From positions 324,843-388,842 of the forward strand of contig CAVQCH010000002.1 in NCBI GenBank assembly GCA_963710945.1: DNA of 64,000 nt, given 5' to 3'. Origin of the DNA: an uncultured Acidobacteriota bacterium (GTDB taxonomy: Bacteria; Acidobacteriota; Thermoanaerobaculia; UBA5066; Gp7-AA6). Shown here in pieces: positions 10,456-62,462 of the stretch. A model generated the notes under the pieces. It was not told the DNA's origin and searched no databases. It saw only the letters and a list, made by a program, of their open reading frames with translations. A program made the position numbers and the translations under genes. Every line of letters starts with the position of its first letter. Positions within the stretch are counted from its first letter, which is position 1.

Positions 10456-12909
10456 ATGGGCGGACTCCGGCAGGACCTTCGACATGCCGCGCGGGGGCTG
10501 GCGAGAAACCCCGGCGTTTCCGCGATCATGGTCGTGACGCTCGCCCTGGGCATCGGGGCGACCACGGCGATTTTCAGCGTGGTGCACGGCGTGCTGCTGC
10601 GGCCGCTGCCGTACCCCGACGCGAAGCGGATCATGGCCGTCTTCGAGGTCACCTCGAAGGGCAGACCGTCGCGCGTCGCGGACCCGAACTTCGACGACTT
10701 CCGGGATCAAAACCAGCAGCTTCCAGGCGATGGCGAAGTACACCAGCGTCGTGGCTTCCGTCTCGGGAGCTGCGTCGCCGACGCGCACGACGGTGGCGTA
10801 CGTCTCGCCCGACTTCGTCCGCGTCCTCGGCGTGCCGCCGATCCTCGGGCGGGACTTCGGCGCCGCCGACGCGAGAAAAGGAGCCGGACCGACCGTCCTC
10901 GTCAGCCAGGGATACTGGAAGCAGCATCTCGGATCGCCGCCGGATCTTTCCCGGGCGCACCTGAAGATCGACGGTGCCGTCTACTCCGTGATCGGCGTGC
11001 TTCCGGCGGGGTTCCGGTTCCCCGCGGACGCGGACCTCTGGGTGCCGGCCGATCTGGACGGCGAGAACCCGAGCCGGACGTCGCATAACTACAGCGCGGT
11101 CGGGCGCCTGCGGGACGGGGTGACCGTCGCGCAGGCGAACCGGGACATCAGCGCGATCGCGCGCCGCATCCACGATGCCTCGAGCGAGAAGGGCGACTAT
11201 CTCCTCGCGGACGCGATGGTCGTCCGGCTCCAGGACTCCATCACCGGCCCGGCTCGCGGCGCGCTTCTGGTGCTGCTCGGCGCGGTCGGGTTCCTGTTGC
11301 TCGTGGCCTGCGCGAACGTGGCGAACCTGCTGCTGGCGCAGGCGTCGGGCAGGCAGCGTGAGCTCGCCATTCGCAGCGCTCTCGGCGCGGCGCGCGGCCG
11401 GCTGATCCGGCAGTTCCTCACCGAGGCATTCCTGCTGTCTCTGATCGGCGGCGGCCTCGGCCTGCTGGGGGCGCTCGGGGGCGTGGCCGGACTGCTGGCG
11501 CTCGCGCCCGCGAGCCTGCCGCGGCTCGACAGCGTCGCGATCAGCCTTCCCGTCCTCGTGTTCGCGTTGCTCCTGTCGACCGCGGTCGCCGCCGGCCTCG
11601 GAGCGTTCACCGCGGTGCGAGCCACCTCCGGCGGCCCGCGCCAGGGCCTCGTCGAGGGCGGGCGGGGACAGGCGGGATCGCCGGGAAGCCAGCGCCTCGG
11701 CCGTTTCATCGTGGCCGCGCAGATCGCGATCACGCTGGTTCTCGTGATCGGAGCGGGCTTGCTCGGGCGCAGCCTGATGAAGGTGCTCGAGGTGAATCCG
11801 GGTTTCCGCGTGGACAGGATCGTCACGATGGACGTTTCGCTTCCCGTGGGTGGACGACGCGAAGGCGAAGGCGGGCCAGGCGGCCTTCTACTCCCGCCTC
11901 ATCGACCGCCTCGCGCAGATCCCGGGCGTGAGCAAGGTCGGCGCGACGAGCGGCCTGCCGATGGACGGCGGCCTTCCCGACGGGATGTTCCTGCTGATGG
12001 CGCCGGAAGAGGCGCCGAAAGACGTGGGGGAGCTCGCCCCGCTGCTCCAAGCAGAAGGAGCGTATCGGCAACGCGGACTTCTGCGCCGCCACGGACGGGT
12101 ACTTCCGGGCCCTTGGAATTCCGTTGATGCGAGGGCGGCTGTTCGACGGACGCGACGGCGCCGATTCTCCGCACGTTGCCGTCATCAGCGAATCGCTCGC
12201 ACGCGATCGGTGGCCGGATCGGGATCCGATCGGCCGCACGATCGAGTTTGGAAACATGGATGGCGATCTGCGTCTCCTCACGATCGTCGGGATCGTGGGC
12301 GACACCCACGAATACGGCCTCGACGCGCCGCCGCGCCCGACCGTCTACGTGAACCTGTTCCAGCGGCCGCGCTCGGCGGTCACCCTGACGATGCTGAGCG
12401 ACGCCGACACGCGCCAGGTCACTTCGGCGGCGCGGGGAATCCTGCAGGACCTCGATCCCGAGCTGCCGGCGAGGTTCCGGACGTTTTCGCAGGTCTACGC
12501 CGCGTCGCTCGGCTCCCGGCGGTTCAACGTCATCCTCGTCGGGTTCTTCGGGATCACGGCCCTGCTGCTCGCCACCGGAGGCGTGTTCGGCGTGATGGCC
12601 TATTCAGTCAGCCGCCGCACGCGCGAGATAGGCGTTCGCGTCGCCCTCGGTGCGCGCTCCCGGGACGTGCTGCGACTGGTGCTCGGTCAGGGCTTGCGCA
12701 CGATCTTCGTCGGCGTGGCGATCGGGATTGCCGGGTCGCTCGCCCTGACGCGCGCCGTGGCGTCGCAGCTCTTCGGCGTGACGGCCACCGATCCGGTGAC
12801 GTTCGGCGCGGTGACGGTCCTCCTCGTCGGGGCGGCGCTGCTCGCCTGTTACGTCCCAGCGCGGCGGGCCACGAGGGTCGACCCGATGGTCGCGCTGCGG
12901 GCCGACTAG
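10456..12909 (+). pseudogene. ABC-transporter permease of the FtsX/MacB-like 'ADOP' family, interrupted by three +1 frameshifts (about 10718, 11848, 12050)
   Basis: Family N-terminus MGGLRQDLRHAARGLARNPGVSAIMVVTLALGIGATTAIFSVVHGVLLRPLPYPD; the middle (...YVSPDFVRVLGVPPILGRDFG...VTMDVSLPV / DDAKAKAGQAAFYSRLIDRLAQIPGV) and C-terminal FtsX domain (...GVMAYSVSRRTREIGVRVALGARSRDVLRLVLG...DPMVALRAD) are in three different frames; no ABC ATPase gene is adjacent. Confidence 0.7.
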
Positions 12910-12912
12910 CTT

Positions 12913-13584
12913 TCAGAACCGATAGATCACCCCGAGGCGGAAGTCTGCCTGCTGGATGACGTGGCTGGTGTCCCGGGAGTTGCACGTGTAGGTGACGAAG
13001 TCCCAGTAGCAGCCGCCGGGGCCGGCCGAGAACAGGTAAACGGGCGCCCAGCGTGCCTCCAGGCGCAGCCCGACGTGCTCGGAGAAGTACGCCCGCACGC
13101 CGCCGGCGATGCTGAAGGTGAACTTCGTCGTCGCGGGCAGCTCGTTGGACGGTACGAGGACGGTGAAGCCGAGGCCCAGGCCGAGGTACGGGCGAACCGG
13201 CCGGCCCGGGGGGACGAAGTTGGCGAGGATGCCGAACGTGACGTCGTGAATCCCCATGTCGTAGGTGCGCTGCGCGGGGTTCGCGTCCGCGGCGAGCGCG
13301 GTCGCCGGAGAGTCCGTGTAGCCGTACTGGATCTCGAGATCGCCGAACCGGTCGATGCCCCAGTCGACGGCCATGCCGAACGTCGCCGCGTTGACGAGAT
13401 CGAGGATTGGCGAGTCGGGGGCGGCCTTCGTCGAAATGCTGCCCTCGATTCGATAGCCGGCGAGCAGCGTCGCCTCGAAGCGGCCCGGCCGGAAAGGCGC
13501 CGCCGGGTCCTGAGCTTCTGCGGCCGCAACCGCTAGAGCCGCGGCGCCAAAACCCGCGAGCAGCCGCGTCCCTCGCCGCGACAT
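12913..13584 (-). CDS. outer-membrane beta-barrel protein (OmpA-like porin fold) with signal peptide
   Basis: MSRRGTRLLAGFGAAALAVAAAEAQ signal; alternating hydrophobic beta-strand pattern; C-terminal aromatic residue (…GVIYRF); GGAGGTG Shine-Dalgarno upstream. Confidence 0.65.
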   Translation of the reverse strand: MSRRGTRLLAGFGAAALAVAAAEAQDPAAPFRPGRFEATLLAGYRIEGSISTKAAPDSPILDLVNAATFGMAVDWGIDRFGDLEIQYGYTDSPATALAADANPAQRTYDMGIHDVTFGILANFVPPGRPVRPYLGLGLGFTVLVPSNELPATTKFTFSIAGGVRAYFSEHVGLRLEARWAPVYLFSAGPGGCYWDFVTYTCNSRDTSHVIQQADFRLGVIYRF

Positions 13585-15012: not shown

Positions 15013-16701
15013 TCACCGGAGCTCGGGGAACTCCTCCTCCCAGAATTCCGCGGGGCCGCGGGCGTTCCTCGCGTGCCGCTCGTTCTCGATCGCCCGCAGC
15101 TCGACGCGGCGGATCTTGCCCGAGATCGTCCTGGGCAGCGGCGCGAACTCCAGGCGCCGGATTCTCTGGAATGGCGCAAGGCGTCTGTGGGCGAAGGCGA
15201 AGATCGAAGCCGCCGTGTCTCGCGACGCCTCCCGCCCCGGCTTCAGGACCACGATGGCCTTCGGGACGCACAGGCGCAGGGGATCGGGGCTGGGAATGCA
15301 CGCGGCCTCTGCGACGGCGTCGTGCTCGAGCAGGGCGCTCTCGAGCTCGAACGGGCTGATCCTGTAGTCGGCGCTCTTGAAGACGTCGTCGGAGCGGCCG
15401 ACGTACCAGAGGTATCCGGAATCGTCGCGGTACGCGGTGTCCGACGTGCGGTAGTAGTCGCCGCCGAGGACGGCCGCATTTCGCGCAGGATCGCCCTCGT
15501 ATCCCGCCATCATGGACGCCGGGCGAGGCCGCAGGTGGATCGCGATCTCGCCCTCCTTCGCGGCGCGGCCATCCTCGTCGAGCAGCGCGATGTCGTATCC
15601 CGGCAGGGGCCGCCCCATCGACCCGGGTCGTACGGGCTGTCCCGGCGTGTTGGCGATCTGCGCGGTGGTTTCCGTCTGCCCGTAACCGTCCCGGATCGTG
15701 AGTCCCCAGGCCTCGCGCACCTTGTCGATGACTTCGGGATTCAAGGGTTCGCCGGCGCCCGTGAGCTCTCGCAGCGCCATCGGGTGGGCCTTCAGGTCTT
15801 CGAGGACGAGCATGCGCCAGACGGTCGGCGGAGCGCAGAAGGTCGTCACGCGGTGCGCGGCGAGGAGGGCGAGCGTGTTGCGCGCGTCGAACCGCGCCGC
15901 TCCCGGCACGAAGATGGACGCTCCGGCGTTCCAGGGAGCGAAGAAGGAGCTCCACGCGTGCTTGGCCCAGCCGGGAGAGCTGATGTTGCAGTGCAGATCG
16001 CCCTCCCGCATTCCGATCCAGTACATGGTCGAGAGGTGGCCGACCGGATAACTGCGGTGCGTGTGCAGCACCAGCTTCGGCAGGGCGGTGGTGCCCGAGG
16101 TGAAGTAGAGGAGCAACGGGTCGTCGGCGAGCGTCGCGCCCTCGGGTCGGAAGGCGGCGGGCTCCGCGTACGCATCCTCGTAGGTCGCCCAGCCCGACTC
16201 CCGGCCGCCGACCAGGATGCGCCGGTAGTCGCCGGAGAGCGCCGCGAACTTCTCGACGCCGCCTCCGTCGGTGACGACGCAGCCCATCCGGCCGCGCTCG
16301 ATGCGATCGGCGAGGTCGGCGGGCGTCAGGAGCGTCGAGGCGGGACTGACGACGGCGCCGAGCTTCATCGCCGCAAGGGTGATCTCCCAGAGGGCCGTGA
16401 CGTTCGGGAGCATCACGAGAATGCGGTCGCGGCGCCGCAATCCGAGGCGACGGAAGAATGCCGCCGCGCGATTCGACCGCTCGGAGAGCTCGGCGAAACT
16501 CAGGCGCGACTCCGTCCCGTCTTCGCCCACGACCCGCAATCCCTCGCGCCGGTTGCCGCGGCCGAGGACGTCGAAATAGTCGAGCGCCCAGTTGAACGCG
16601 GTCAATTCCGGCCAGCGGAAGCCGGCGCGGGCCCGGTCGTAGTCCTGGCTGTTGTCGATCAGAAATTCCCGCGCCTCGAGGAAGGATTTCGTGGGGTTCA
16701 A
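15013..16701 (-). CDS. AMP-dependent synthetase/ligase (acyl-CoA synthetase family)
   Basis: AMP-binding motif YFTSGTTALPK, ...DGYGQTETT..., C-terminal ...ISGKIRRVELR; 64 bp downstream of the PKS operon on the same strand. Confidence 0.85.
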   Translation of the reverse strand: MNPTKSFLEAREFLIDNSQDYDRARAGFRWPELTAFNWALDYFDVLGRGNRREGLRVVGEDGTESRLSFAELSERSNRAAAFFRRLGLRRRDRILVMLPNVTALWEITLAAMKLGAVVSPASTLLTPADLADRIERGRMGCVVTDGGGVEKFAALSGDYRRILVGGRESGWATYEDAYAEPAAFRPEGATLADDPLLLYFTSGTTALPKLVLHTHRSYPVGHLSTMYWIGMREGDLHCNISSPGWAKHAWSSFFAPWNAGASIFVPGAARFDARNTLALLAAHRVTTFCAPPTVWRMLVLEDLKAHPMALRELTGAGEPLNPEVIDKVREAWGLTIRDGYGQTETTAQIANTPGQPVRPGSMGRPLPGYDIALLDEDGRAAKEGEIAIHLRPRPASMMAGYEGDPARNAAVLGGDYYRTSDTAYRDDSGYLWYVGRSDDVFKSADYRISPFELESALLEHDAVAEAACIPSPDPLRLCVPKAIVVLKPGREASRDTAASIFAFAHRRLAPFQRIRRLEFAPLPRTISGKIRRVELRAIENERHARNARGPAEFWEEEFPELR

Positions 16702-16765
16702 GGGCGGAACGGTATCGCGACGCGGGGGTCGGAGACGAGGGGAGCGCCCGGGGCGGGCAGGCGCT

Positions 16766-17893
16766 CTATCGCGCGCCGAGGCGGGCGATCGCGAAGCGCA
16801 GCAGGGGCGACCCCGCCATTCGCGCGGCGACGGCGGCGGCCGAGGGCTGGAGCATGAACCGTCGGAACACCGAGCCCCAGCCGAACGGCCGGGAGAAGCG
16901 CTCGCGCCAGGCCCGCGTGTAGACGCGGGCGACGTCGTTCATGGAAATCCGCCCGTCGAGGCCCCGGATCAGGATCTCCGCCGCCAGGATTCCCGACCCC
17001 AGCGCTCCCGCCTGACCTTCGCCGGAAAAGGGATCGATGACGCCCGCGGCGTCGCCGACCATGAGCATCCGGTTTTCGACCGGCGGCTTCACGGTGAAGA
17101 ACACGGGACCGATCCCGAGGAATCCGCCCGGCCCCTCCCGCAGGTTCGCCATCGCCGCGTCCAACGCCGCGCTCGAGCGGCGGGCATGGGCGACCACGAC
17201 ATCCCATCCGCTGCCGAGCCTCCGGCGCGTTCGTTCGGAAATGACGCCCGCCAGATTCGTCACTCCGTTCTCGACCCGGGAAAGCCCGCAGTAGCCGCCC
17301 GGGAAGAGGAAGAGATGAACGTGGCCGGCGAGCCGTTCGCCGCCGGCGAAATCCCGGCTCCAGCCGAAGAATCGCGAGCCGCCGGCGAGAAATCGGCGCT
17401 TGAGCCTGCGATCGAGAGCGTCCCATCGCCCCCACGCGCCGATGACGCAGCGGGCTTCGAGAGTGTGTTCGCTCCCGTCGGACAGGAACCGGACGCGGAA
17501 CTCGGAGCCGGTGCCCCGGTCGATCGACGTCACGCGAGCGCCGTATCGGACCTCCGCTCCAAGCGCGGCGGCGCGCCGCGCGAGCAGCGTGTCGAGGCGC
17601 GAGCGGGAAACGCCGAGGCCGGCGGCGGGCAACTCGAAAGCGACCGAGCGGCCGCGGGGAAGATGCAGGAAGCCTCGTTCGATGTGTTCCGCGCCGGCTT
17701 CGATGTCGGCAAGGACGCCCAGGCGCCGCAGATCCGGCCTCGCCCTGCCGGAAAGAAATTCGCCGCAGACCTTGGCGCGCGGAAAGCGGTCCTTCTCCAG
17801 GACGATCGCGCGACGCCCCGCCGCGGCGAGGGTCGCCGCCGCCGCGGATCCGGCGGGCCCGGCGCCGACGATCAGGGCATCGCAAGCGCTCAT
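16766..17893 (-). CDS. FAD-dependent oxidoreductase/monooxygenase (geranylgeranyl-reductase-like fold)
   Basis: N-terminal DALIVGAGPAGSAAAATLAAAGRRAIVLEK (GxGxxG FAD motif); ATGA start/stop overlap with the upstream methyltransferase. Confidence 0.8.
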   Translation of the reverse strand: MSACDALIVGAGPAGSAAAATLAAAGRRAIVLEKDRFPRAKVCGEFLSGRARPDLRRLGVLADIEAGAEHIERGFLHLPRGRSVAFELPAAGLGVSRSRLDTLLARRAAALGAEVRYGARVTSIDRGTGSEFRVRFLSDGSEHTLEARCVIGAWGRWDALDRRLKRRFLAGGSRFFGWSRDFAGGERLAGHVHLFLFPGGYCGLSRVENGVTNLAGVISERTRRRLGSGWDVVVAHARRSSAALDAAMANLREGPGGFLGIGPVFFTVKPPVENRMLMVGDAAGVIDPFSGEGQAGALGSGILAAEILIRGLDGRISMNDVARVYTRAWRERFSRPFGWGSVFRRFMLQPSAAAVAARMAGSPLLRFAIARLGAR

Positions 17894-18589
17894 GCGTCGG
17901 CGGTGATCAGAAGGCCGTAAGGGAACACGCGCCTCGTGCGGGCGGTCGGGGCGACGGCCCCGGCGATCGCCTGCGCCTCCGCCGCCGTGTAGGCCTGCCG
18001 CACGGAGGCGACACCATCGAGCACCGAGACTCGGCTTCGAAAGAGCGCGCGCCCTGCCACCGCGATGGCGGCGAGCGGGATCCGGTGCCGGCGCAGATCG
18101 AGGATGGCGAAGCCGACCCGCGCGACGCGCAGGAGCTCGGCGAGGATCGACCGGTTCTCGTCGGGAGAGAAGTGGTGAAAGAACAGCGTCGAGACGGCAA
18201 AGTCGAAGGCTCGATCGGGAAACGGAAGGCGGAAGACGTCCGCGGCGACGAGTCCCACGGGGTGCGGGGCCCGGGACGTTCGCCCCGCCGCCAGGTGCCT
18301 CCACTGGACGTCGAGCGCGGTCACGCGGACCTCTCCCGCGGCGTCGCGAGAGGGATGCGCGGAGCCGGCGCGTGACCGAGGCGGAACCGGCGCCGACGTC
18401 CAGGATCGAGGCCGGCCGGCCGGGGACCCGGAGTCGAGGCGCCAGGTGGCGCACGAGCGCCCGCGACCCGCCCCAGTGCCGATGAACGAAGTCGAGATCC
18501 GCGAGCGAGAGCCGCATCTCCGCGTCGGGAAGCGACGGATCGTCCAGGAGCTCGCCCGAGGGGCGCCGGGGAGGCACGAGGAGACTCAC
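17890..18589 (-). CDS. class I SAM-dependent methyltransferase (apparent single frameshift near 18330)
   Basis: SAM motif I ILDVGAGSASVTRRL in one frame; motifs ...FDFAVSTLFFHHFSPDEN...LAELLRVARVGFAILDL in the adjacent frame. Confidence 0.7.
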
Positions 18590-18626
18590 CGGCGGCGGCC
18601 CGCGCTCCGGCGAGCCCGTGGACGCC

Positions 18627-19682
18627 TCACGCCCATTGCAGCAGAAGCTGCTCCGCCGTAAATCCGGGACCGAATGCCGCCATGAGGCCGAGGCTTCCCG
18701 GCGCCGGCCGCCTCTTCGTCACCCACTCGTGGAGCACGAAGAGCACCGAGGCGCTCGACAGGTTTCCGTACTCGGCGAGGACGTCCCATGAGGGCTGCGT
18801 GCGCTCGCGGGGGAGAGCGAGCTCTTCTTCGATCGCGGCGAGGAGCTTTCGACCCCCCGGATGGAGCACGAACGCGTCGATTTCCCCGGGAGCGAGGCCG
18901 TGGCGCCGGAGAAAACACGGCACCAGGTCCCGGATCCGTCCCCGGATCATGTCCGGGACGTCGCGGGAGAGCACGATGTGGAGTCCCGTCTCCTTCAGGA
19001 CGAAGCCCATCGCGTCGATCGAGTCGGGAAACAGGTAACTCTCGGCGTCGAGGACCCGCGGCCCGGCCGCATCCTGCCCCGTCATGACGGCCGCGGCGGC
19101 GCCGTCGCCGAAGAGGATGCTCGAGATCAGGTTGGCCTGAGAAAGGCTGCCGCGTTGAAACGTGAGGCTCGCGAGCTCGACAGCGACGATCAGGACCCTG
19201 CCCCGCGGGAAAGCCAGCAGGAAATCGCGCCCGCGCGCGATCGCCGAGGCGCCCGCGGCGCACCCGAGCTCGGTGATGGGCAAGCGGCGCACGTTGGATC
19301 GAAAGCCCATGGCGTTGACGAGGTGGGCGTCGAGCGAAGGGATCATCACGCCGGTGCACGAGACGGTGATGATGAGGTCGATCTCCTCCGGCTGCACCCG
19401 TGCGCGCGCGAGGCACTCGGTCGCGACCTCGCGGCCGAGGCGGATGGCGTGTTCCTGATACTGCTCGCTGATTCGATCGAGAGATCTCGGCCGGATCAGC
19501 TCTTCCACCGGCAGGACGCAGAAGCGCTGGCGAATCCCGGAGTTGTCGACGACCGCCATCATCGCGTCGAGCCGTGAACCCTCGAGCGGGAACACTCGTC
19601 CGAAGTAGGTCTTGACCTCCTCGCGCGTGACCGGGAAATCGGGAACCGCGGTCGCGGTGGCGGCGATGACGGCGTCGGCCAT
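18627..19682 (-). CDS. type III polyketide synthase (chalcone/stilbene synthase superfamily)
   Basis: Cys-His-Asn triad motifs GCAAGASAI, FVLHPGGRKLL, YGNLSSASVLFVL; about 350 aa. Confidence 0.85.
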   Translation of the reverse strand: MADAVIAATATAVPDFPVTREEVKTYFGRVFPLEGSRLDAMMAVVDNSGIRQRFCVLPVEELIRPRSLDRISEQYQEHAIRLGREVATECLARARVQPEEIDLIITVSCTGVMIPSLDAHLVNAMGFRSNVRRLPITELGCAAGASAIARGRDFLLAFPRGRVLIVAVELASLTFQRGSLSQANLISSILFGDGAAAAVMTGQDAAGPRVLDAESYLFPDSIDAMGFVLKETGLHIVLSRDVPDMIRGRIRDLVPCFLRRHGLAPGEIDAFVLHPGGRKLLAAIEEELALPRERTQPSWDVLAEYGNLSSASVLFVLHEWVTKRRPAPGSLGLMAAFGPGFTAEQLLLQWA

Positions 19683-19685
19683 GCG

Positions 19686-20558
19686 TCAGTTCCGGCCGGC
19701 GTCGATTCGAGCAATCTCGCGGGAGTACAGCGGGTTCTGCGGAAATTCGTCGCGCAACTCCGCGAGCATACGCCGCGCGCGCGGCCCGTCGTGGTCGCGC
19801 AGGTAGGCGACGGCCAGCAGCAGGCGGGCGAACGGGGCGAGGTAACGGCCGCTCTGCGCCGTCCATTCGAGCTCCCGGATTCCCTGCTTCTTGTCCGACG
19901 AAAAGCCGCTCAGGCCCAGGATCCACCGGACGGGAGCCGGGCTGCTCCCGATCAAGTATTTCGAGAGGCCCGTGGCCAGGTAGGCGTCCCCGTAGTCGGG
20001 GGCCACGGCCAGGAGCTTCCGCGCCCACTCCGTGGCGCGCCGCGTCGGCCCGAGCGCCGCGAGGTTGCGATTCTCGATGAGGGAAAGGTAGTCCGCCTGC
20101 AGCCCCGAATCGAGCGTCAGCGCAAAGAGCGCGTCCGTGTCGCGGGGATCCGCGGCGATCCTCGCCCGCGCGAGAGACTCGGACCGCCGCAGGGCGGCGT
20201 CGAACCGGGCCCGGGTGTCGGGGTCCGGATGGAGGCCCTTTCGGCCGAGGAAGCTCTCGTCCTCGACGAAGAACTGCGCCTCGAGGATCCCGAGCCGATT
20301 CAACTCCGAGAAGAGCGTGCCCGCGGCTTCCGAAGCCGGCCCCAGGGGGTCCTCCGGATGCAGCCGTTGCCACTCCGCAAAGGCCCCGAGCGCGCCCTCG
20401 AAGTCGAGCTGGTACATCTGCCGGTAGCCGAGATCCAGGGAATCGGCAGCCGGCGGAAGCGTGGCCCCGAGCGCGCGCGCGCCCAGCGTCGCCATGCCCC
20501 AGAAGAGCAGCGACCGAAGGCGAATCCCCCGTGAGCGGCAGCGCGTTGTCATGACCAC
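19686..20558 (-). CDS. hypothetical exported helical protein, first gene of the PKS operon
   Basis: 3-nt gap to the PKS start; N-terminal hydrophobic segment; no recognisable catalytic motif. Confidence 0.45.
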   Translation of the reverse strand: MVMTTRCRSRGIRLRSLLFWGMATLGARALGATLPPAADSLDLGYRQMYQLDFEGALGAFAEWQRLHPEDPLGPASEAAGTLFSELNRLGILEAQFFVEDESFLGRKGLHPDPDTRARFDAALRRSESLARARIAADPRDTDALFALTLDSGLQADYLSLIENRNLAALGPTRRATEWARKLLAVAPDYGDAYLATGLSKYLIGSSPAPVRWILGLSGFSSDKKQGIRELEWTAQSGRYLAPFARLLLAVAYLRDHDGPRARRMLAELRDEFPQNPLYSREIARIDAGRN

Positions 20559-20703
20559 TCGGCCTGCCGCCCGGGAGCAATCCGTCTCCCGCGACGCGGC
20601 CGCCTCGATCGTAGTGGCTGCAAGAACCGGACCGCGGGCGCTTTAACCCGATCCTTATTGCTTTTTCGGCGAGTGCCCGATACGGTCCGACGCGTCGAGG
20701 CCG

Positions 20704-20991
20704 ATGCCGATGCCCGATCCACTCGCCGAAACCGTCATTGCCGCGCTGGCCGAGGTCAAGCACGTGGCCCCGGAAGGCATCTCGATCGACAGTACGTTCG
20801 AAGAGCTCCGCGTCGATTCCCTGGACGCCATCACGCTGCTCTTCGAGCTCGAGGGCCGGCTCGACGTCGTCATCCCGGACGACGCGGCGAAATCGGCCCG
20901 CAGCGTCCGCGACGTCGTCGAAGGACTCCGGGCGCTGATCGCCCGCGGCCCCGCGCAGCCCGCCTCTCCACCCGCGCCCGCCGCCCGATGA
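20704..20991 (+). CDS. acyl carrier protein
   Basis: Phosphopantetheine attachment motif LRVDSLDAITLLFELE; ATGA overlap with the downstream ketosynthase. Confidence 0.8.
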   Translation: MPMPDPLAETVIAALAEVKHVAPEGISIDSTFEELRVDSLDAITLLFELEGRLDVVIPDDAAKSARSVRDVVEGLRALIARGPAQPASPPAPAAR

Positions 20992-22259
20992 CTTCGCCGC
21001 CCCGGCGCGTCGCCGTGACCGGGGTGGGCGCGATCTGCGCGCTCGGCCGCGACGCTCCGGGAATGTGGGCGGCCCTCTGCGAGGGCCGGTCGGGAATCGC
21101 CCCCATCGAGTCGGTCGACATGACCGGCCTTCGGTTTCAGAACGGGGCCGAAGTGAAGGACTTCGATCCCGCCGAGCACTTCGATCCTGGCCGCATGGAC
21201 CTGCTGGACCGCTTCGCGCAGTTCGCCGTCATCGCTGCCCGGGAGGCCGTGCGGGACTCCGGCGTGGAGCTCACGCCGGAACGGGGAGAGCGGACCGCGG
21301 TCTTCACCGGATCGAGCCTGGGCGGCCAGACCACGGAGGATGCGGCCTTCGTGGAGCTCTATCAGCGCCGATCCGGCCGCATCCATCCACTCTCGATTCC
21401 CCGGACCATGGCCAACGCCGGGGCGAGCCAGATCTCGATGGAATTCGGCGTGACCGGCCCCTGTCTCACGACCTCGACCGCGTGCTCTTCCGCCAGCCAC
21501 GCGATCGGCCAGGCCTTCTGGATGGTGCGCGGCGGAGCCGTGGACCTCGCCCTTGCCGGGGGCAGCGAAGCCCCTTTTTCTCCGGGGCACCTGAGGGCCT
21601 GGGAGGCGATGCGGGTCGTCGCTCCGGACACGTGCCGGCCTTTCTCTCTCGATCGCCGAGGGCTGATCCTCGGGGAGGGGGGCGCGATGCTCGTGCTCGA
21701 GCCGCTCGACGCGGCCAGAGCCCGGGGAGCCCCGATTTACGCCGAGATCTCGGGCTTCGGCATGTCTTCCGATGCCCACCACGTGACGCAGCCGACCGTC
21801 GCCGGGCCGGCTCGCGCGATGCGCGGGGCGCTCGCCGACGCGGACCTCCTCCCCGAGCAGATCGGCTACATCAACGCCCACGGCACGGGAACGCGCGGCA
21901 ACGATTCGGCCGAGGCCCGCGCGATTCGAGAGGTCTTCGGCGCTTGCGCGGATCGCCTCGCCGTCAGCTCGACCAAGTCGATGCACGGACACGCCCTCGG
22001 CGCGGCGGGCGCGCTGGAGGCGGTCGCTACGGTGCTCGCTCTACAAAAGGGGATTCTTCCGCCGACGGCGAACTTCACCGCTCCGGATCCCGAATGCGAC
22101 CTCGACGTCGTGCCCAACCGGTCTCGAGCCGCCGCTCCCGAGGCAGCGCTGTCGAACTCCTTCGCTTTCGGGGGTCTCAACGCGGTGCTCGCCTTCCGCG
22201 CGACCCGGGATCGGCACGATGGGCAGGCGCGCTCGCAAGGGCCGGAATGGCCCGTTTGA
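20988..22259 (+). CDS. beta-ketoacyl-ACP synthase II-like ketosynthase (FabF family)
   Basis: Active-site Cys (TTSTACSSAS), His motifs (...DAHHVTQP..., ...INAHGTGT...), C-terminal FAFGGLNAVLAF. Confidence 0.85.
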   Translation: MTSPPRRVAVTGVGAICALGRDAPGMWAALCEGRSGIAPIESVDMTGLRFQNGAEVKDFDPAEHFDPGRMDLLDRFAQFAVIAAREAVRDSGVELTPERGERTAVFTGSSLGGQTTEDAAFVELYQRRSGRIHPLSIPRTMANAGASQISMEFGVTGPCLTTSTACSSASHAIGQAFWMVRGGAVDLALAGGSEAPFSPGHLRAWEAMRVVAPDTCRPFSLDRRGLILGEGGAMLVLEPLDAARARGAPIYAEISGFGMSSDAHHVTQPTVAGPARAMRGALADADLLPEQIGYINAHGTGTRGNDSAEARAIREVFGACADRLAVSSTKSMHGHALGAAGALEAVATVLALQKGILPPTANFTAPDPECDLDVVPNRSRAAAPEAALSNSFAFGGLNAVLAFRATRDRHDGQARSQGPEWPV

Positions 22260-22400
22260 GCGACTCGATTTCAGCGGCCGTCCCGCGAAAAGTCGATCGC
22301 AAAGGACCTATCGGGGCCTTAGAGTTGCTTCGCGGCCGGCCTCGACTCGCATATCATGGGAAGGCAGGTGTCTACTAAACGGAGGGAGTCAGGTCGTCAC

Positions 22401-23174
22401 ATGAATGCAGCGAAGGTCACGACGAGCGCGCCTGCCGGCGCGGCGCCGGCGGAGGCGGGAACGGTGAACGCGGCACCCCGTGCCGTGCGGTTCGTCAACA
22501 ACGACGACGCCTCCTGCCGGATGTTCGGCAGCAACGTCCAGGAGGCCCTGAGCCACGTGCCCCCCTGGGCGCCGCACGCCATCTTCCTGCCGGCCGTCGC
22601 CTTTGCGCTCGCGGCGGCCTTCCGGACGGCGAGCCCGGCGCGGGTGGGGGTGCTCGTTCTCGGAGGACTCTTCCTCTGGACTCTCCTCGAGTACCTGATC
22701 CACCGGTCGATCTTCCATCCGCCGCAGTGGATCGAAGACGACACGCGGCGCGTCGTCGGCTCGCTCGCCCCGGGCCAGGCCGTGTTGCCGGCCCTCCCGA
22801 CGCTGCGCCACAAGTTCTATTTCGTGGTGCATGGCGTGCATCACGACTATCCCAACGACTCGACCCGTCTGGTGATGCCGCCATCCGTGAGCATCCCGCT
22901 GGCGGCTCTTTTCTTTCTGGCCTTCGAGGCGGTCTTCGGGGCCGCGGCGGCGCCCGCGGTGTTCGCCGGCTTCATCGCGGGATACCTGGTATACGACACG
23001 ATCCACTTCGTCGTGCATCACGCGAGCGGATCCTGGGCGCTCGTCCGGGCGCTGAAGCGCCGCCACTTCCGGCATCACTACGCGGACTCGAGCCACGACT
23101 TCGGCGTCAGCTCGCCGCTGTGGGACCTCGTCCTCGGCACGCTCGGAAGCGCGGAGACCGGACGCCGCCGCTGA
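22401..23174 (+). CDS. fatty-acid hydroxylase / sterol-desaturase superfamily membrane protein
   Basis: His boxes HRSIFH, HGVHHDYP, HFVVHH, HHYAD in a 4-TM protein; GGAGGGAG Shine-Dalgarno. Confidence 0.75.
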   Translation: MNAAKVTTSAPAGAAPAEAGTVNAAPRAVRFVNNDDASCRMFGSNVQEALSHVPPWAPHAIFLPAVAFALAAAFRTASPARVGVLVLGGLFLWTLLEYLIHRSIFHPPQWIEDDTRRVVGSLAPGQAVLPALPTLRHKFYFVVHGVHHDYPNDSTRLVMPPSVSIPLAALFFLAFEAVFGAAAAPAVFAGFIAGYLVYDTIHFVVHHASGSWALVRALKRRHFRHHYADSSHDFGVSSPLWDLVLGTLGSAETGRRR

Positions 23175-25237: not shown

Positions 25238-28200
25238 ATGGGGGAGGTGTACCGGGCGCGGGACTCGAAGTTGAAGCGCGACGTGGCGGTCAAGGTACTG
25301 CCGCAGTCGCTGGCCGCCGATCCCGATGCGCTGGCGCGGTTCGAGCGCGAGGCCCTGGCGGTCGCGGCGCTGTCCCATCCGAACATCCTCTCCATCTTCG
25401 ACTTCGGGACGCATGAGGGGACGGCCTACGCGGTCATGGAGCTTCTGGACGGGGAGACGCTGCGCGGGAAGATCGACACCGGCCCGATTCTGCAGAAGCA
25501 GGCCGTGGACTATGCGCTCCAGATCGCGAAGGGCCTTTCCGCCGCCCACGAGAAGGGGATCGTCCACCGGGATCTGAAGCCCGAGAACCTCTTCGTTTCC
25601 AGGGACGGCCATCTCAAGATCCTCGACTTCGGTCTGGCCAAGCGCGTCGAGGCCGTCGCTCCGGGCGAGGAGACGAGCGCGCCGACGGGTTCGGGCCACA
25701 CGGAGCCCGGGACGGTGATGGGCACGGCGGGCTACATGTCGCCCGAGCAGGTGAAGGGGTTCGCGGTGGATCATCGCTCGGACATCTTCTCGTTCGGGAC
25801 GATCCTCTACGAGCTGCTTTCGGGCAGGAAGGCGTTCAAGCGGGATTCGAGCGCCGAGACGATGGCGGCCATCCTGCGAGACGACCCGCCGGAGTTGTCG
25901 GAATCCGGGCGGAACATCTCTCCCGCTCTCGACCGTGTCGTCAAGCATTGCCTGGAGAAGGACCGGGAACATCGGTTCCAGTCGGCCAGGGACATCGTGT
26001 TCAACCTCTCGGAGCAGCTGACGCCAGCGCCGACGGGCGGCCCCCGGGAAACCGCCCCGCCGATCGGCTCCAAGGGCTTCTGGATCGCCGTGCTGCCCTT
26101 CAAGTACGGAGGCGCCAACGCCGATCTCGCGGCCCTGGCCGACGGGCTCTCTGACGAAATCGTGACGGGTCTTTCGCGGTTTCGATATCTCTCGGTCGTT
26201 GCGAGCGCCTCGGCGGCGCGTCTGAAGGGCGTAGCGGGAGACGAGCGGTCCCTGGGCGCTCAACTCGGCGCGCGTTACGTGCTGGAGGGGAGCATTCGCG
26301 AGGGCGGTTCCGCCATTCGCGTGAGCGCCCGGCTCGTCGACGCCCAGACGGGAGCGCAGCTCTGGTCCGAGACGTTTGAACGGGACCTCCGGACGTCGGG
26401 CATCTTCGCGGCTCAGGACGACGTCGCCGCCCGCATCGTCGCGACGGTCGCCGACAGCTACGGGGTGCTCGTGCATTCGATAAGTGCCGCGGCCCGGCAG
26501 AAGGACGACGCCGATCTCACGCCGTTGGAGTGGCAGTTCCAGTATTTCGCCTACCGCGAGCAGATCACTCCCTCGGCCTACGCGGAGCTCAAGAGCCGGC
26601 TGGAGCGTGCGGTGGAGCGGGACGGCCGCCAGTCGGACCTCTGGGCGTGTCTCGCGCAGATCTTCGTCGACGAATACGCGTTTGGCTTCGGGACCGACCC
26701 GGCCGCTCTCGATCGTGCCCTGGCCGCGGCCCGCCGCGCGGTCGAACTCGATCGGGCGAACCAGTTTGCGCTCGTCGCGCTCGCCCAGACGCACTTCTTT
26801 CGCCAGGACCTCGCGGCGTTTGGTCCCGCGGCCGAGCGCGCGATGGCCCTCAACCCGCTCAACACCGACGCGGTCGGGATCCTGGGGTTGCAGATCGTGC
26901 ACACCGGCGACTTCGAGCGAGGCGCCGCGATCGTGCGTCGCGCGATGGAGCTCAATGCCAATCACGCGGGTTGGATGCATTTCGCTCCGCTCTGGGAGCA
27001 CTTCCACAAGGGCGAGTACGAGCAGGCTCTCGAGTGCGCGAACCGGGTAGACGTGCCCGGCCTTTTCTGGCCTTATCTCGTGGTGGCGTCTGCCTGCGGG
27101 CACCTCGGCCGGCGCGCCGAAGCCGCGGCCGCGGTCCGCGACCTGTTGTCGCTCGACCCCGAATTTGCGGCGCACGCGCGCTCGAACATCGGGAGCTGGC
27201 ACTTCGCGAGCGGCCTGATGGGGCCGATCCTGGATGGGCTGCGCAAGGCGGGGCTCGATCTGGCTCCCGAGCAGGAGCCTGCCGCCGCGGCTCGCCGGCG
27301 CGCTCCGGCTTCCGCAGCGCACTCGGGCGCCGCCCGCGCCGACGAGGGCTTCCGGGTCGCGGTGCTGCCGTTCAAGTACGGCGGAACCGACGCCGCTGTC
27401 ACGACGCTGGCCGAAGGGCTGGCGGAGGGGATCGTGACCGGGCTGTCACGTTTCTCCTACCTCCGGGTGATCTCGCGCACTTCCGGCGACAAGAATCTCG
27501 GTGCGCGCTATGTGATGGAGGGAAGTCTGCGGCAGGCGGGGACCAAACTGCGTCTGGCGGTACAGCTCGTGGACACGACTTCCGGTGCAAATCTCTGGGC
27601 CGAAGACTATGAACGCCCGTTCGCCCCGGACGCGGCCTTCGAGCTTCAGGACGATCTGGTTCCGCGGATCGTTTCGACGGTCGCGGATCAGTACGGCGCG
27701 CTGGTGCACAGCATGAGCGAGTCGCTGCGCGGCAGAAGCGCCACGGAATACTCCGCGCACGAGGCGGTGCTGCGGGCCTTCGGTTACTGGGAGCGCGTCA
27801 CCCTGGAGGAACACGCGGAAGTTCGCGAGATCCTCGAAGCGGCGGTTGCTCGCGCCCCCGGCCACAGCGACTGCCTCGCCGAACTGTCGTTGATTTACGG
27901 GCACGAGTACGTGTTCGGATACAACCTCAGGCCCGATCCACTGGGCCGCGCGCGTGCGGCCGCGCAACGCGCGGTCGCATCGGCGCCGACCAGCCACTTC
28001 GCCCACTGCGCATTGGCTTGCGGCTTGTTCTTCCTGAGGGACTTCCAGGCCTTCCGAACGGCGGCGGACCGCACCCTCGCCCTGAATGGAATGGATTCCT
28101 CCACCGCGGCGCTGCTCGGAACGATGATCGCCTATGCCGGTGACTGGGAATACGGGCTGGGCGTCGTGGAACGAGCGAAGCAACTCAACCCGCATCATCC

Positions 28201-31168
28201 GGGCTGGTATCACTACGTTGCCCTTACCGATGCCTACCGCCGGCGTGACTATCGCGGCGCACTGGCCATTGCCCTCAAGGTCAACATGCCCGGCTACTAT
28301 TGGCCGCACGTGTTGCTGGCCGCCGTCTATGGGCAGCTCGGTGAACTGGAGCGCGCGCGCACGGCGCTGCGGGAGCTGCACGCGCTGCTGCCGACCTTCG
28401 GCGCGACGGCGCGAGAGGAATTCGGCAAGTGGCATGACGTCGAGCTCACCGAGCATCTGCTCGACGGGCTGCGCAAGGCGGGGCTGGAGATTCCGCCGGA
28501 GAACGAGACCGCAGCCCCGCCGCCCGTACTCGCTCTTTCTTCCGCGACCGACTCGGGTGCGGCCCGCGCCGACGAGGGATTCTGGGTCGCGGTGCTGCCC
28601 TTCAAGTACGGCGGCGCCGACGCTTCCCTCACGGCTCTGGCCGACGGGCTGACCGAAGAGATCGTGACCGGCCTCTCGCGCTTCTCCTACCTGAGGGTGA
28701 TCGCGCGCAGTTCGACCTCGCGGTTTGCGAACGAACCGGTAGATGTGCGCTCTGCCGGCAAGGAACTGGGCGCTCGCTACGTGATGGAAGGCACCCTGCG
28801 GCAGGCGGGGAGGAAGCTTCGCCTCGCCGTCCAGCTGGTGGATGCGGCTTCCGGCGCTCATCTCTGGGCCGAGAGCTATGAGCGGATCTATCGCCCGGAG
28901 GCGGTCTTCGAGTTACAGGACGACCTGGTTCCGCGGATCGTTTCGACGGTCGCCGACATGCACGGGGTTCTGCCCCGGACCATGAGCGAGGCTGTGCGCA
29001 GCCGCGCTCCCGAGCAGTTGAGCCCCTACGAAGCCGTGCTGCGCAGCTTCGGCTACTCGACGCGGGTCACGCCCGAAGAACTTGCCGCGGCGCGCTCCGG
29101 CCTGGAATTGGCGGTGCGGAAGGCGCCGGCCTATGCCGACGCCTGGGCGATGCTGGCCTGGCTGCGCATCCAGGACCATGCGCAAAGTTTCAATCTTCAG
29201 CCGGATTCCCTGGCGAGCGGGCTGACCGCGGCGCGGCGGGCGGTGGAGGCGGCGCCATCCAGTCACCTGGCCCATGGCATGCTCGCCCAGGCGCTCTTCT
29301 TCCACAAAGAATTCCAGAGCTTCCGCAATGCGGCGGAGCGGGCCGTGGCCCTCAACCCGATGAACGGCGACTCCATCGCTTTTCTCGGTGAGTTGCTGAC
29401 CTATGCGGGTGACCGGGAGCGCGGCCTCGAGCTGGCGGGGCGCGCCAAGCAGCTCAATCCCAACCACCCCGGATGGTACTGGTATACCGATTTCTACGAC
29501 GCGTACCGCCGGGGCGACGACCGTGGCGCGCTCGATGCCGCGCTCAAGGTAAACCTGCCGGGGCAGTGGTTTTGGCACGCGGCGGTGGCCGCGGCCTGCG
29601 GGCAGCTCGGGGACCGCGTCGCGGCCAACAGGGCCTCGAAGGCCCTGCTCGAGCGGCGACCGGACTTCGCCGCCACCGCGCGCAGCGATATCGAGAAATG
29701 GTGGGAGCCCGAGTACGTCGAGCGTCTCATCGACGGCTGGCGCAAGGCGGGTCTGGACGTTGCCGTGCTGGCGCAAGCCGATTCCGCGGCGAAGCCGGCC
29801 GCGGCGGTCGCGATCGCGGTGTTGCCCTTCTCGGACATGAGCCCCGCGAAGGACCAGGACTACCTCTGCGAGGGCATGGCCGAGGAAATCATGAACGCGC
29901 TCGTTCGCATCGACGGGATTCGGGTGGCGTCGCGGACCTCGGCCTTCCGCGCGCGGCAGGAGGGCGGCGACCTGCCCGCGATCGCCCGCGCCCTCTCCGT
30001 GAACCACGTCCTCGAAGGGAGCGTGCGAACGGCCGGCACGCGGCTGCGCGTCACGGCACAACTCACCGACGTCGCGAGCGGCTACCAGCTCTGGTCGGAG
30101 CGATTCGATCGCGATGCTGCCGACATCTTCGCCGTCCAGGACGAAATTGCGGCCGGCGTCGTCGAAGCCGTCAAGGCGCGACTCGCGCCGGGGGAGCGGA
30201 CGATTCACGCTCGTCCGCAAGCGCGCAACCTCGAGGCCTACCGCAGCTACTTGAAGGGGCGGCATCTTCGGTACGCGAAGGAGGACTATGGCGGGGCGAT
30301 CCGCGCGTTCGAGGAGGCCGTCCGCCTCGACCCCACGCACGCGCCTTCGTGGACCGGTCTGGCGGAAAGCAACGCGGCCGCGGCGAACATGGGAGCGATC
30401 CCCGCGCGCGAGGCCTGCGCGGCCGCGAGAAATGCCCTGGCAACCGCGGTCGCGCTGGAGGGAGAGTCCGCGGACAGCCTTCATGCCGAGGCCTTCGTGG
30501 CCCTGATCGAACGACGATGGGCGGCGATGGAGGCCACCTGGCGCCGGGCCATCGAGCTCCAACCCACTCACAGCCTGGCCCTGGGCTCGTTCGGGATCAG
30601 CCTCTGCATACGGCAGAAGGCCGACGAGGGATTGCGGTTCCTGGAGCGCGCCCGGGAGGCCGATCCGCTCGCGTCCTTTCCTCTGATGCTCACCGGATGG
30701 GCGATGCTGTGCATCGGAAGGCCGCAGGAGGCCCGGCGTTACGCGGAGGACGCGCTCTCTTTCGAGAAAGAGGACGCTTCGGCCTTGCTTTGCTCGATCA
30801 TGGCGAAGATCGCCCTCGGGCAATTCGAAGAAGGAATTGCGATCGCGGAGCACCTCGTCGCGGTGTCGCACCGCGGTGTCTCCCTCTTCCTCGCTCTCCT
30901 GGGATGGGCGCTCGCGACCGCGGGACGGAAGGACGAAGCCCGGAAACTTCTCCAGGAGCTGCGAGCCCTTCCGGCGCACCACTTCGTCTCGGAGGGCTGG
31001 CTGCATGGCGCGCTCGGCGAGATCGACGCGGCCTTCGAAGCGCTCGCGCGGGCGGAAGAGGCGTACCAGGCCACTCTCTACTACACGGGATTGCCCGGCT
31101 TCGATTCTCTCCGCGCAGATCCGCGATTCGGAGCGCTGCTCGAGAGGCTGGAGCTGGCGTCCGCTTGA
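25238..31168 (+). CDS. giant Ser/Thr protein kinase (about 2 kaa): N-terminal Hanks kinase domain plus four tandem sensor modules (TolB-N-like LPF alpha/beta domain + TPR-like helical domain). The true start is probably upstream (about 25172, non-canonical ATA/CTG) because the glycine loop begins before the first ATG
   Basis: Kinase motifs GAGGMGEVY, AVKVL, HRDLKPEN, DFG, GTAGYMSPE; module starts GFWIAVLPFKYGG (26075), GFRVAVLPFKYGG (27348), GFWVAVLPFKYGG (28578), AIAVLPFSDMSPAKDQDYLCEGMAEEIMNALVRI (about 29800). Confidence 0.85.
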   Translation: MGEVYRARDSKLKRDVAVKVLPQSLAADPDALARFEREALAVAALSHPNILSIFDFGTHEGTAYAVMELLDGETLRGKIDTGPILQKQAVDYALQIAKGLSAAHEKGIVHRDLKPENLFVSRDGHLKILDFGLAKRVEAVAPGEETSAPTGSGHTEPGTVMGTAGYMSPEQVKGFAVDHRSDIFSFGTILYELLSGRKAFKRDSSAETMAAILRDDPPELSESGRNISPALDRVVKHCLEKDREHRFQSARDIVFNLSEQLTPAPTGGPRETAPPIGSKGFWIAVLPFKYGGANADLAALADGLSDEIVTGLSRFRYLSVVASASAARLKGVAGDERSLGAQLGARYVLEGSIREGGSAIRVSARLVDAQTGAQLWSETFERDLRTSGIFAAQDDVAARIVATVADSYGVLVHSISAAARQKDDADLTPLEWQFQYFAYREQITPSAYAELKSRLERAVERDGRQSDLWACLAQIFVDEYAFGFGTDPAALDRALAAARRAVELDRANQFALVALAQTHFFRQDLAAFGPAAERAMALNPLNTDAVGILGLQIVHTGDFERGAAIVRRAMELNANHAGWMHFAPLWEHFHKGEYEQALECANRVDVPGLFWPYLVVASACGHLGRRAEAAAAVRDLLSLDPEFAAHARSNIGSWHFASGLMGPILDGLRKAGLDLAPEQEPAAAARRRAPASAAHSGAARADEGFRVAVLPFKYGGTDAAVTTLAEGLAEGIVTGLSRFSYLRVISRTSGDKNLGARYVMEGSLRQAGTKLRLAVQLVDTTSGANLWAEDYERPFAPDAAFELQDDLVPRIVSTVADQYGALVHSMSESLRGRSATEYSAHEAVLRAFGYWERVTLEEHAEVREILEAAVARAPGHSDCLAELSLIYGHEYVFGYNLRPDPLGRARAAAQRAVASAPTSHFAHCALACGLFFLRDFQAFRTAADRTLALNGMDSSTAALLGTMIAYAGDWEYGLGVVERAKQLNPHHPGWYHYVALTDAYRRRDYRGALAIALKVNMPGYYWPHVLLAAVYGQLGELERARTALRELHALLPTFGATAREEFGKWHDVELTEHLLDGLRKAGLEIPPENETAAPPPVLALSSATDSGAARADEGFWVAVLPFKYGGADASLTALADGLTEEIVTGLSRFSYLRVIARSSTSRFANEPVDVRSAGKELGARYVMEGTLRQAGRKLRLAVQLVDAASGAHLWAESYERIYRPEAVFELQDDLVPRIVSTVADMHGVLPRTMSEAVRSRAPEQLSPYEAVLRSFGYSTRVTPEELAAARSGLELAVRKAPAYADAWAMLAWLRIQDHAQSFNLQPDSLASGLTAARRAVEAAPSSHLAHGMLAQALFFHKEFQSFRNAAERAVALNPMNGDSIAFLGELLTYAGDRERGLELAGRAKQLNPNHPGWYWYTDFYDAYRRGDDRGALDAALKVNLPGQWFWHAAVAAACGQLGDRVAANRASKALLERRPDFAATARSDIEKWWEPEYVERLIDGWRKAGLDVAVLAQADSAAKPAAAVAIAVLPFSDMSPAKDQDYLCEGMAEEIMNALVRIDGIRVASRTSAFRARQEGGDLPAIARALSVNHVLEGSVRTAGTRLRVTAQLTDVASGYQLWSERFDRDAADIFAVQDEIAAGVVEAVKARLAPGERTIHARPQARNLEAYRSYLKGRHLRYAKEDYGGAIRAFEEAVRLDPTHAPSWTGLAESNAAAANMGAIPAREACAAARNALATAVALEGESADSLHAEAFVALIERRWAAMEATWRRAIELQPTHSLALGSFGISLCIRQKADEGLRFLERAREADPLASFPLMLTGWAMLCIGRPQEARRYAEDALSFEKEDASALLCSIMAKIALGQFEEGIAIAEHLVAVSHRGVSLFLALLGWALATAGRKDEARKLLQELRALPAHHFVSEGWLHGALGEIDAAFEALARAEEAYQATLYYTGLPGFDSLRADPRFGALLERLELASA

Positions 31169-62385: not shown

Positions 62386-62462
<77 letters not shown>

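Follow-up and report, generated by a model that had tools for sequence, protein, structure and literature searches.

Which of the genes around the type III polyketide synthase (PKS) of an uncultured soil acidobacterium act with it, and what would they make together? The question arises from a 64,000-nucleotide stretch of DNA (contig CAVQCH010000002.1, positions 324,843 to 388,842), referred to here in its entirety as the window, in which a preliminary description had recognised a candidate phenolic-lipid locus resembling the Streptomyces griseus srs operon. The list of open reading frames (ORFs) and a Pfam search placed eight genes where that description had put them and in the families it had claimed, with matches to Chal_sti_synt_N/C, Methyltransf_11/25, FAD_binding_3, AMP-binding, PP-binding, ketoacyl-synt N/C and FA_hydroxylase. 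The analysis favoured, with a probability of roughly 0.6, a self-contained cluster for a phenolic lipid of the alkylresorcinol/alkylpyrone type, primed via a dedicated beta-ketoacyl-ACP synthase (KS) and acyl carrier protein (ACP) in a Thermoanaerobaculia-like acidobacterium, the steps of which we infer. The cluster is Srs-like in its logic, its tailoring enzymes are not orthologous, and an acyl-CoA synthetase (ACS) and a fatty-acid hydroxylase beside it are peripheral. As a variant of familiar bacterial clusters, it stands out mainly in that the PKS always keeps a carrier protein and a chain-extending enzyme of its own with it.

The extent of the cluster was examined in 80 genome loci fetched through the PKS and in several more obtained by exact look-up (L numbers below). 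Homologues of the cluster proteins were mapped by tblastn and the loci were ordered on a PKS tree. The nearest loci and named proteins belonged to Acidobacteriota metagenome-assembled genomes (MAGs), mostly labelled Thermoanaerobaculia. The comparison revealed a conserved unit, spanning 16766-22259 of the window, in which the KS and ACP genes diverge from genes for a TPR-like protein, the PKS, a methyltransferase (MT) and a flavoprotein. The unit was present in the window, L001, L006 (where the TPR gene is lost) and L172/L173, and the flanking genes were unrelated, giving at least four genomic contexts; it has been inherited and has moved as a block. L006 has a deletion of 824 nt that takes in the promoter region between the divergent operons along with the greater part of the TPR gene (L006:9792-10001 against window 19770-20594), so that the ACP and PKS genes lie approximately 200 nt apart.

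The PKS tree also showed how this unit relates to simpler ones. A large clade of approximately 35 loci, mostly from Terriglobia, had the arrangement PKS, ICMT methyltransferase, TPR, and a second clade of 16 distinct loci and the window added a discrete ACP and a FabF-like KS. Many loci of the second clade also carried a YceI lipid-binding protein and an FAD monooxygenase after the ICMT gene. Within this clade the lineage of the window, made up of the window, L001, L006, L091, L158, L172 and L173 with PKSs 87-93% identical, had neither the ICMT nor the YceI gene and carried instead a class-I methyltransferase and a distant flavoprotein. The PKS-MT-flavoprotein order was the same in all seven, and in the window the pair occupied the exact position of the ICMT and flavoprotein genes of the sister clusters.

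The PKS (351 aa, 18627-19682, minus strand) is probably of the long-chain alkylresorcinol/alkylpyrone type. It scored 79.3 and 80.8 bits against Chal_sti_synt_N and Chal_sti_synt_C (cut-offs 27) and 67.8 bits against ACP_syn_III_C, while in NCBIfam it gave 171 bits with DpgA compared to 89 bits with FabH. The closest solved structure was the long-chain enzyme Pks11 of Mycobacterium tuberculosis (E=4e-67), with which the catalytic triad aligned; THNS from Streptomyces coelicolor and CylI, which ranked fourth, were also among the nearest solved relatives. A FabH-like identity was ruled out by the Pfam, NCBIfam and structural matches, and the enzyme is a true type III PKS of the CHS superfamily, as the preliminary description had proposed. 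The motifs GCAAGASAI, HPGG and GNLSSAS that it had listed were found in the translation, and the triad residues Cys141, His274 and Asn307 within them were invariant across 14 aligned homologues. An exact-sequence look-up of the PKS gave no match, while homologues number in the thousands, many of them labelled alkylresorcinol or alkylpyrone synthase by JGI. These labels and the kinship with Pks11 hint at a long-chain resorcinol or pyrone as the product. In the alignment the Met-Gly-Trp of Pks11 read Met-Gly-Phe in the window enzyme; this Trp would correspond to Trp281 of ArsB, as deduced from the published description and not from a direct alignment (PMC9927152).

The first gene of the PKS operon encodes a predicted exported, all-helical TPR-like protein (290 aa, 19686-20558, minus strand) which ends 3 nt before the PKS. 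A TPR partner was found in approximately 45 loci of the PKS survey. The protein, which had been called a hypothetical exported protein, is all-helical and TPR-like, and its signal peptide is predicted from the sequence only.

On the other side of the 145-bp divergent intergenic region (20559-20703) lie the genes for the ACP (95 aa, 20704-20991, plus strand) and the KS (423 aa, 20988-22259, plus strand), whose start overlaps the ACP stop in an ATGA; both the intergenic length and the overlap were read directly from the sequence, in agreement with the preliminary description. The ACP matched Pfam PP-binding and has a DSL phosphopantetheine site, the sequence reading ...LRVDSLDAITLL... The KS matched ketoacyl-synt N/C and contained the motifs TACSSASH, DAHH and HGTGT of a Cys-His-His active site. 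In NCBIfam it scored 458 bits against fabF, below the equivalog cut-off of 494, and 439 bits against the subfamily PRK07314, above the cut-off of 387, indicating a FabF-like enzyme that is probably not the housekeeping one. Among the loci fetched through the PKS, KS and ACP genes adjoined the PKS in 16 further loci, all in one PKS subclade, and did so in divergent, co-directional (L015) and convergent (L042) arrangements and with the TPR gene included in the KS operon (L008, L009, L085). The identity of the KS to its relatives (64-90%) tracked that of the PKS (57-93%). The divergent ACP/KS pair, which had been suggested as an addition to the canonical srs set, is thus a conserved partner of the PKS, kept in 16 other loci despite the rearrangements. 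This link is the most interesting and the best-supported new element of the cluster.

A different explanation of the same genes is that ACP, KS and the adjacent hydroxylase constitute an independent module making hydroxylated or unusually long acyl chains for membrane lipids, and are mere neighbours of the PKS. These three genes are transcribed divergently from the PKS, the KS appears to be a fully competent FabF-type enzyme that exceeds the NCBIfam threshold of a FabF subfamily, and a relative of the hydroxylase is a ceramide acyl 2-hydroxylase, an enzyme acting on membrane lipids. The explanation is nevertheless distinctly unlikely: in 16 loci KS and ACP have remained next to the PKS despite rearrangements of four kinds, and they diverge in step with it, the PKS-associated TPR gene lies inside the KS operon in three of these loci, and the hydroxylase is dispensable to the unit.

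The hydroxylase itself (22356-23174, plus strand) is an Scs7/FA2H-like, putative fatty-acid 2-hydroxylase, a His-box di-iron membrane enzyme. It scored 59 bits against Pfam FA_hydroxylase (cut-off 31), and its only match in the PDB was yeast Scs7p (E=4e-27), with boxes of the HxxxxH, HGxHH and HHxxxxxH type aligned. The match covers the membrane domain of Scs7p including the His boxes, while the cytochrome b5 domain of Scs7p/FA2H is lacking. Translation probably starts at the ATG at 22401, as indels between the genomes upstream of this position suggest a non-coding stretch. The gene adjoined the KS gene in three of five loci (the window, L001 and L006) and was absent from L172/L173. The earlier assignment of the hydroxylase to the cluster therefore holds for its family, borne out by the Scs7p match, and not for its constancy.

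The proposed priming of the PKS by the KS and ACP has precedents. In Myxococcus, FtpC and FtpD form with FtpA a type III PKS system primed by a carrier protein. Type III PKSs that accept acyl-ACP starters include ArsB and ArsC, supplied by ArsA, as well as Gcs and SCO7671 (PMC6274091), and carrier-primed systems are formed by ArsA/ArsD with ArsB/ArsC in Azotobacter and by CylB/CylD/CylH with CylI in cyanobacteria (PMC6274091, PMC8086630). The cluster shares with the Ars, Cyl and Ftp systems a dedicated carrier protein that is encoded and co-conserved with the type III PKS. Those systems use type I fatty acid or polyketide synthases or a fatty acyl-AMP ligase, whereas the window has a single discrete FabF-like KS of type II and an ACP, and neither a loader nor reductive enzymes. 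Full-text searches of one literature collection turned up neither an account of the association of KS and ACP with the PKS nor one of an acidobacterial cluster, and no characterised acidobacterial locus of this kind, as the preliminary description had stated.

A comparable but independent combination occurs in Bacteroidota. There an overlapping operon encodes a flavoprotein, a methyltransferase, a PKS, a short-chain dehydrogenase/reductase, a FabA-like protein, a KS and an ACP. Outside Acidobacteriota, too, type III PKSs thus occur together with chain-building enzymes of type II and with this kind of tailoring pair. This operon has a type III PKS, a class-I methyltransferase, a geranylgeranyl-reductase (GGR)-like flavoprotein, a KS and an ACP in common with the window; unlike the window cluster it includes ketoreductase-like and dehydratase-like enzymes of its own, its genes are all co-directional, and its proteins are 22-39% identical. 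The seven-gene operon was seen in L068:8170-13794 (Croceivirga lutea), L064-L073 and L078, with an ACP-like ORF of 81 aa, and no published characterisation of it was found in a literature search.

The likeness to srs is more limited on the tailoring side of the cluster. The srsABC operon of S. griseus and pkqABC of Mycobacterium smegmatis lead from alkylresorcinols to alkylquinones (PMC9927152), and SrsB belongs to the ICMT family (PMC6669644). The window shares with them the order type III PKS, methyltransferase, flavoprotein and the expectation of a long-chain phenolic lipid (PMC9927152, PMC6669644), and adds a discrete ACP, a FabF-like KS and the exported TPR protein. The spacings that had been reported for the operon were correct: the 3-nt gap between TPR and PKS genes, a 37-nt gap, an ATGA overlap of MT and flavoprotein genes and a 64-nt gap to the ACS gene. 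The methyltransferase (approximately 233 aa, 17890-18589, minus strand, with a +1 frameshift near 18346) is of the class-I Rossmann type and not an ICMT. After repair of the frame it matched Pfam Methyltransf_25/11 and scored 108 bits against NCBIfam PRK06202, below the cut-off of that model; a BLASTP comparison with an ICMT of a Streptomyces srs-type operon gave no match, and a tblastn search of plasmids with the MT gave none either. It had been taken for the counterpart of SrsB, a reading that fails given that it matches Methyltransf_11/25 only and SrsB is an ICMT-family enzyme (PMC6669644). The flavoprotein (FAD-dependent oxidoreductase, 375 aa, 16766-17893, minus strand) resembles the geranylgeranyl-reductase/SrsC-like group. 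It matched Pfam FAD_binding_3 and gave 127 bits with NCBIfam GG-red-SF (TIGR02032), under the cut-off of 159. Compared with an SrsC-type enzyme it was approximately 29% identical (E=1.6e-4); this comparator came from the srs-type operon of a Streptomyces plasmid, found by a PKS search of plasmids, and is not SrsC of S. griseus. The flavoprotein of the sister clusters was 36% identical to the same enzyme (E=3e-19). The flavoprotein of the window therefore appears to be a distant paralogue, and the equivalence to SrsC that had been claimed is not supported. In sum the Srs-like gene order stands, being kept in the closest relatives, and the orthology of both tailoring enzymes does not.

It is the sister clusters that resemble srs more fully. 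In the PKS-ICMT-monooxygenase core of the acidobacterial clade the ICMT was 43% and the monooxygenase 36% identical to the proteins of the Streptomyces plasmid operon, and this core is, on these identities, the true srs architecture. BpsA and BpsB of Bacillus subtilis form a pair of a type III PKS and an ICMT-like methyltransferase. Likened by description, such pairs correspond to what most loci of the acidobacterial PKS clade have, PKS and ICMT usually followed by the TPR gene, and differ from the lineage of the window, which has lost the ICMT gene. Likened by gene content, the hidABC genes for cyanobacterial hierridins and the planctomycetal mtr-fdo-t3pks operons follow the same logic of methyltransferase, FAD oxidoreductase and alkylresorcinol synthase; their gene order is different and they have no KS or ACP. 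In the planctomycete 'Saltatorellus ferox' the MT and PKS genes come after two genes that encode a lipoprotein and a protein binding lipids or isoprenoids (PMC10896814), a pair that resembles the TPR (and YceI) genes of the acidobacterial clusters.

A pathway consistent with these observations would begin with the FabF-like KS and its dedicated ACP, which may assemble or carry a long acyl (or 3-oxoacyl) chain using malonyl-ACP and the reductases and dehydratase of housekeeping fatty-acid synthesis. The chain would be passed as an acyl-ACP starter to the type III PKS, which would add two or three malonyl units and cyclise the product to an alkylresorcinol or alkylpyrone. The class-I methyltransferase would then methylate the ring and the GGR/SrsC-like flavoprotein oxidise it, giving a lipid of the methoxy-alkylhydroquinone/quinone type. 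For the secreted TPR protein, together with YceI in sister clusters, a role in handling the lipid within the periplasm or the envelope is proposed. In the lineage of the window the ancestral ICMT methyltransferase and SrsC-like monooxygenase would have been displaced by the other MT-flavoprotein pair, and the fatty-acid 2-hydroxylase would have been appended in some genomes.

Several observations weigh against such a pathway. No acyltransferase, loader, ketoreductase or dehydratase is encoded within the cluster, so that the argument for the role of the KS comes from its neighbourhood alone. The methyltransferase is frameshifted in the sequence of the window. Models and motifs do not assign the flavoprotein to either a hydroxylase or a reductase reaction: it shares the motifs K-x-C-G-E and GDAAG-x-DP-x-G-x-G both with the archaeal geranylgeranyl reductase TaGGR and with SrsC-type enzymes, and the Cys of its CGE aligns with that of TaGGR and is also carried by homologues of SrsC-type hydroxylases. 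The MT-flavoprotein pair, finally, is found mostly elsewhere. In a second survey, made with the flavoprotein, 80 metagenome loci were fetched. Of the 50 loci whose upstream sequence was long enough, at least 45 had the pair in a block without a PKS, where an alpha/beta-hydrolase (ABH) and a different, highly conserved KS (KS*, 38% identical to the KS of the window) precede it. The native substrate of the pair is thus possibly no PKS product. In L172/L173 the syntenic block is present minus KS*, MT and flavoprotein, and the PKS cluster with its pair lies only approximately 1.5 kb away, hence the juxtaposition of pair and PKS could be a neutral local rearrangement.

The home operon is well conserved. 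It was observed in L088:5178-9137 and approximately 45 metagenome loci (L092-L168), with an alpha/beta-hydrolase, a FabF-like KS (78-92% conserved), a class-I MT and a GGR-like flavoprotein, within a syntenic block that includes NTP-transferase, Zn-ribbon, MoeA, TP_0789-like, FtsX and ABC genes. A protein 100% identical to the window flavoprotein (P0121) was found on a public contig of 575.6 kb. The idea that the flavoprotein is a halogenase was discarded, as Glu69, nearly invariant in the family, takes the place of the catalytic Lys of CndH/Bmp2, and in place of the WxWxIP motif the sequence reads LFLFPGGY.

The frequency of the pair away from any PKS does not support the earlier interpretation, and the pair may be read as a housekeeping lipid- or quinone-tailoring unit of the MenG/MenJ kind that landed beside the PKS by local rearrangement and leaves the PKS product untailored. 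The prevalence of the block without a PKS and its emptied counterpart in L172/L173 agree with such an origin, as do weak scores with models for MenJ and UbiE/MenG and the fact that the MT tolerates a frameshift in the genome of the window. We consider it unlikely, however, that the pair is a bystander. At the PKS it takes the position of the ICMT and SrsC-like genes with gaps of 0-37 nt to the PKS and then moves with the PKS into other genomic contexts, and homologues of both genes are found in the PKS operons of Bacteroidota. PKS-adjacent copies are also nested among KS*-context copies in the flavoprotein tree, and that of L158 stands elsewhere than the rest, so that the PKS-adjacent pairs occupy two separate branches. 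In L158 (208-3943) the PKS is 87% identical to that of the window, and MT and flavoprotein are 57-58% identical and group with KS*-context copies, which points to the pair having been captured separately, or to recombination. Taken together, the flavoprotein tree, the syntenic block and the L172/L173 loci lead to the conclusion that the pair moved to its place beside the PKS, probably on more than one occasion, displacing the ICMT and the monooxygenase.

The frameshift in the MT raises the separate issue of whether the cluster is functional in this organism. Three-frame translation placed the N-terminal 82 codons (from GTG 18589) and the C-terminal part ending at 17890 in different frames, and alignment with the relatives L001 and L006 located one extra nucleotide near 18346. 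The MT is unbroken in L006 (231 aa), L090, L172 and L173. Programmed frameshifting was excluded, since the relatives carry one unbroken frame at this site, as in the intact gene of L006. The N-terminal frame has no stop after the shift and therefore runs into the flavoprotein frame, creating a spurious ORF of 607 aa (16766-18589, minus strand) that a gene caller could misreport as a fusion.

If the extra base is a real mutation, the cluster may be decaying and its pathway either end with an unmethylated product or be silent. The base occurs only in the window when compared with the two relatives, it lies outside any homopolymer run, and a nearby permease of the MacB/FtsX type also seems to be split over several frames. 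Set against this, third-position GC remains high (0.85) downstream of the shift and the remaining cluster genes are all intact. The contigs of L001, L172 and L173 are moreover long-read assemblies rich in single-base indels, of a kind in which consensus errors are common, and because such indels affect the same genes in relatives the shift in the window is possibly a consensus error as well. Decay was on balance judged rather unlikely, and the methylation step may be lost in the organism of the window if the extra base does not stem from an error in the assembly. The indels of the long-read MAGs split or scramble the MT, flavoprotein, TPR, KS and PKS genes (L001:11094-12927, L172:7286-8517, L173:10154-10924); in the MT of L001 a +2/+1 pair leaves the ORF open and garbles approximately 42 residues.

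The AMP-forming ACS (562 aa, 15013-16701, minus strand) lies outside the conserved unit as a neighbour. It matched Pfam AMP-binding and AMP-binding_C, and its best NCBIfam models were MbcS and acetate-CoA ligase, both far under cut-off. The preliminary description had regarded it as a dedicated enzyme. The gene adjoins the cluster only in the window, a homologue following the flavoprotein in none of the four relatives with a readable downstream flank (L001, L006, L172, L173), and the enzyme belongs with the medium-chain MbcS/acetate-CoA-ligase type and not with the fatty acyl-AMP ligases; on conservation it was ruled out as a cluster member. These results bear on the biosynthetic model put forward earlier, according to which the ACS activates a fatty acid and loads it as the starter, directly or via the ACP, as in the Ftp or Ars systems, the starter is altered by the hydroxylase, and methyltransferase and flavoprotein correspond to SrsB and SrsC. 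The ACS gene is on the same strand, only 64 nt downstream and with no terminator-like site between, and type III PKSs primed through an ACP are known. Yet there is no ACS downstream of the flavoprotein in the four relatives, the enzyme is nearer to medium- and short-chain MbcS and acetate-CoA ligases than to fatty acyl-AMP ligases, L172/L173 lack the hydroxylase and the fold family of the MT differs from that of SrsB, all of which make this model very improbable compared with priming by the KS and ACP. A terminator-like hairpin was seen after the ACS gene at 14958-14939, in a promoter and terminator scan that was otherwise of little information.

Few kinds of biosynthetic locus are predicted as often in soil Acidobacteriota as type III PKS clusters, and in other phyla phenolic lipids and polyketide quinones are associated with envelope robustness, dormancy and respiration at low oxygen. 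Should the KS and ACP indeed prime the PKS, the cluster would represent a type II/type III hybrid of a simple kind in which chain length is set apart from bulk fatty-acid synthesis. A broader proposal, tentative and held at somewhat less than even odds, is that one clade of Acidobacteriota, and by convergence certain Bacteroidota, possess an undescribed hybrid system, in which a type III PKS would be primed by a discrete type II KS/ACP, the phenolic lipid or polyketide quinone so formed would be carried to the envelope by TPR and YceI proteins of the periplasm, and tailoring would be supplied by exchangeable cassettes, either ICMT with an SrsC-like enzyme or a class-I MT with a GGR-like enzyme drawn from a separate KS-linked operon. 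The comparison across loci provides a clear natural case in which tailoring enzymes at a fixed cluster position were replaced by non-orthologous ones, and delimits a minimal gene set for heterologous expression.

Other features of the window were recorded during the analysis. Its G+C content is approximately 69%, as a result of which spurious ORFs are plentiful. The 145-bp intergenic region contained no sigma-70-type consensus, in a scan that is uninformative for this phylum, and Rfam and tRNA scans of the locus gave no match. Across the whole window three tRNA genes were detected, Met-CAT (37403-37479, minus strand), Val-TAC (42298-42372, plus strand) and Asp-GTC (62386-62462, plus strand), and no other Rfam family was matched. 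The duplicated MacB_PCD/FtsX permease at 10456-12909 (plus strand) appears broken over three frames, with ORFs at 10456-11088, 10730-12127, 11850-12959 and 12124-12909, and is either a pseudogene or the product of assembly indels. Beyond the hydroxylase, an ORF of 1976 aa (25238-31168, plus strand) encodes an N-terminal Ser/Thr protein kinase followed by a TolB_N-like region and many TPR repeats, and is uninterrupted across 5.9 kb.

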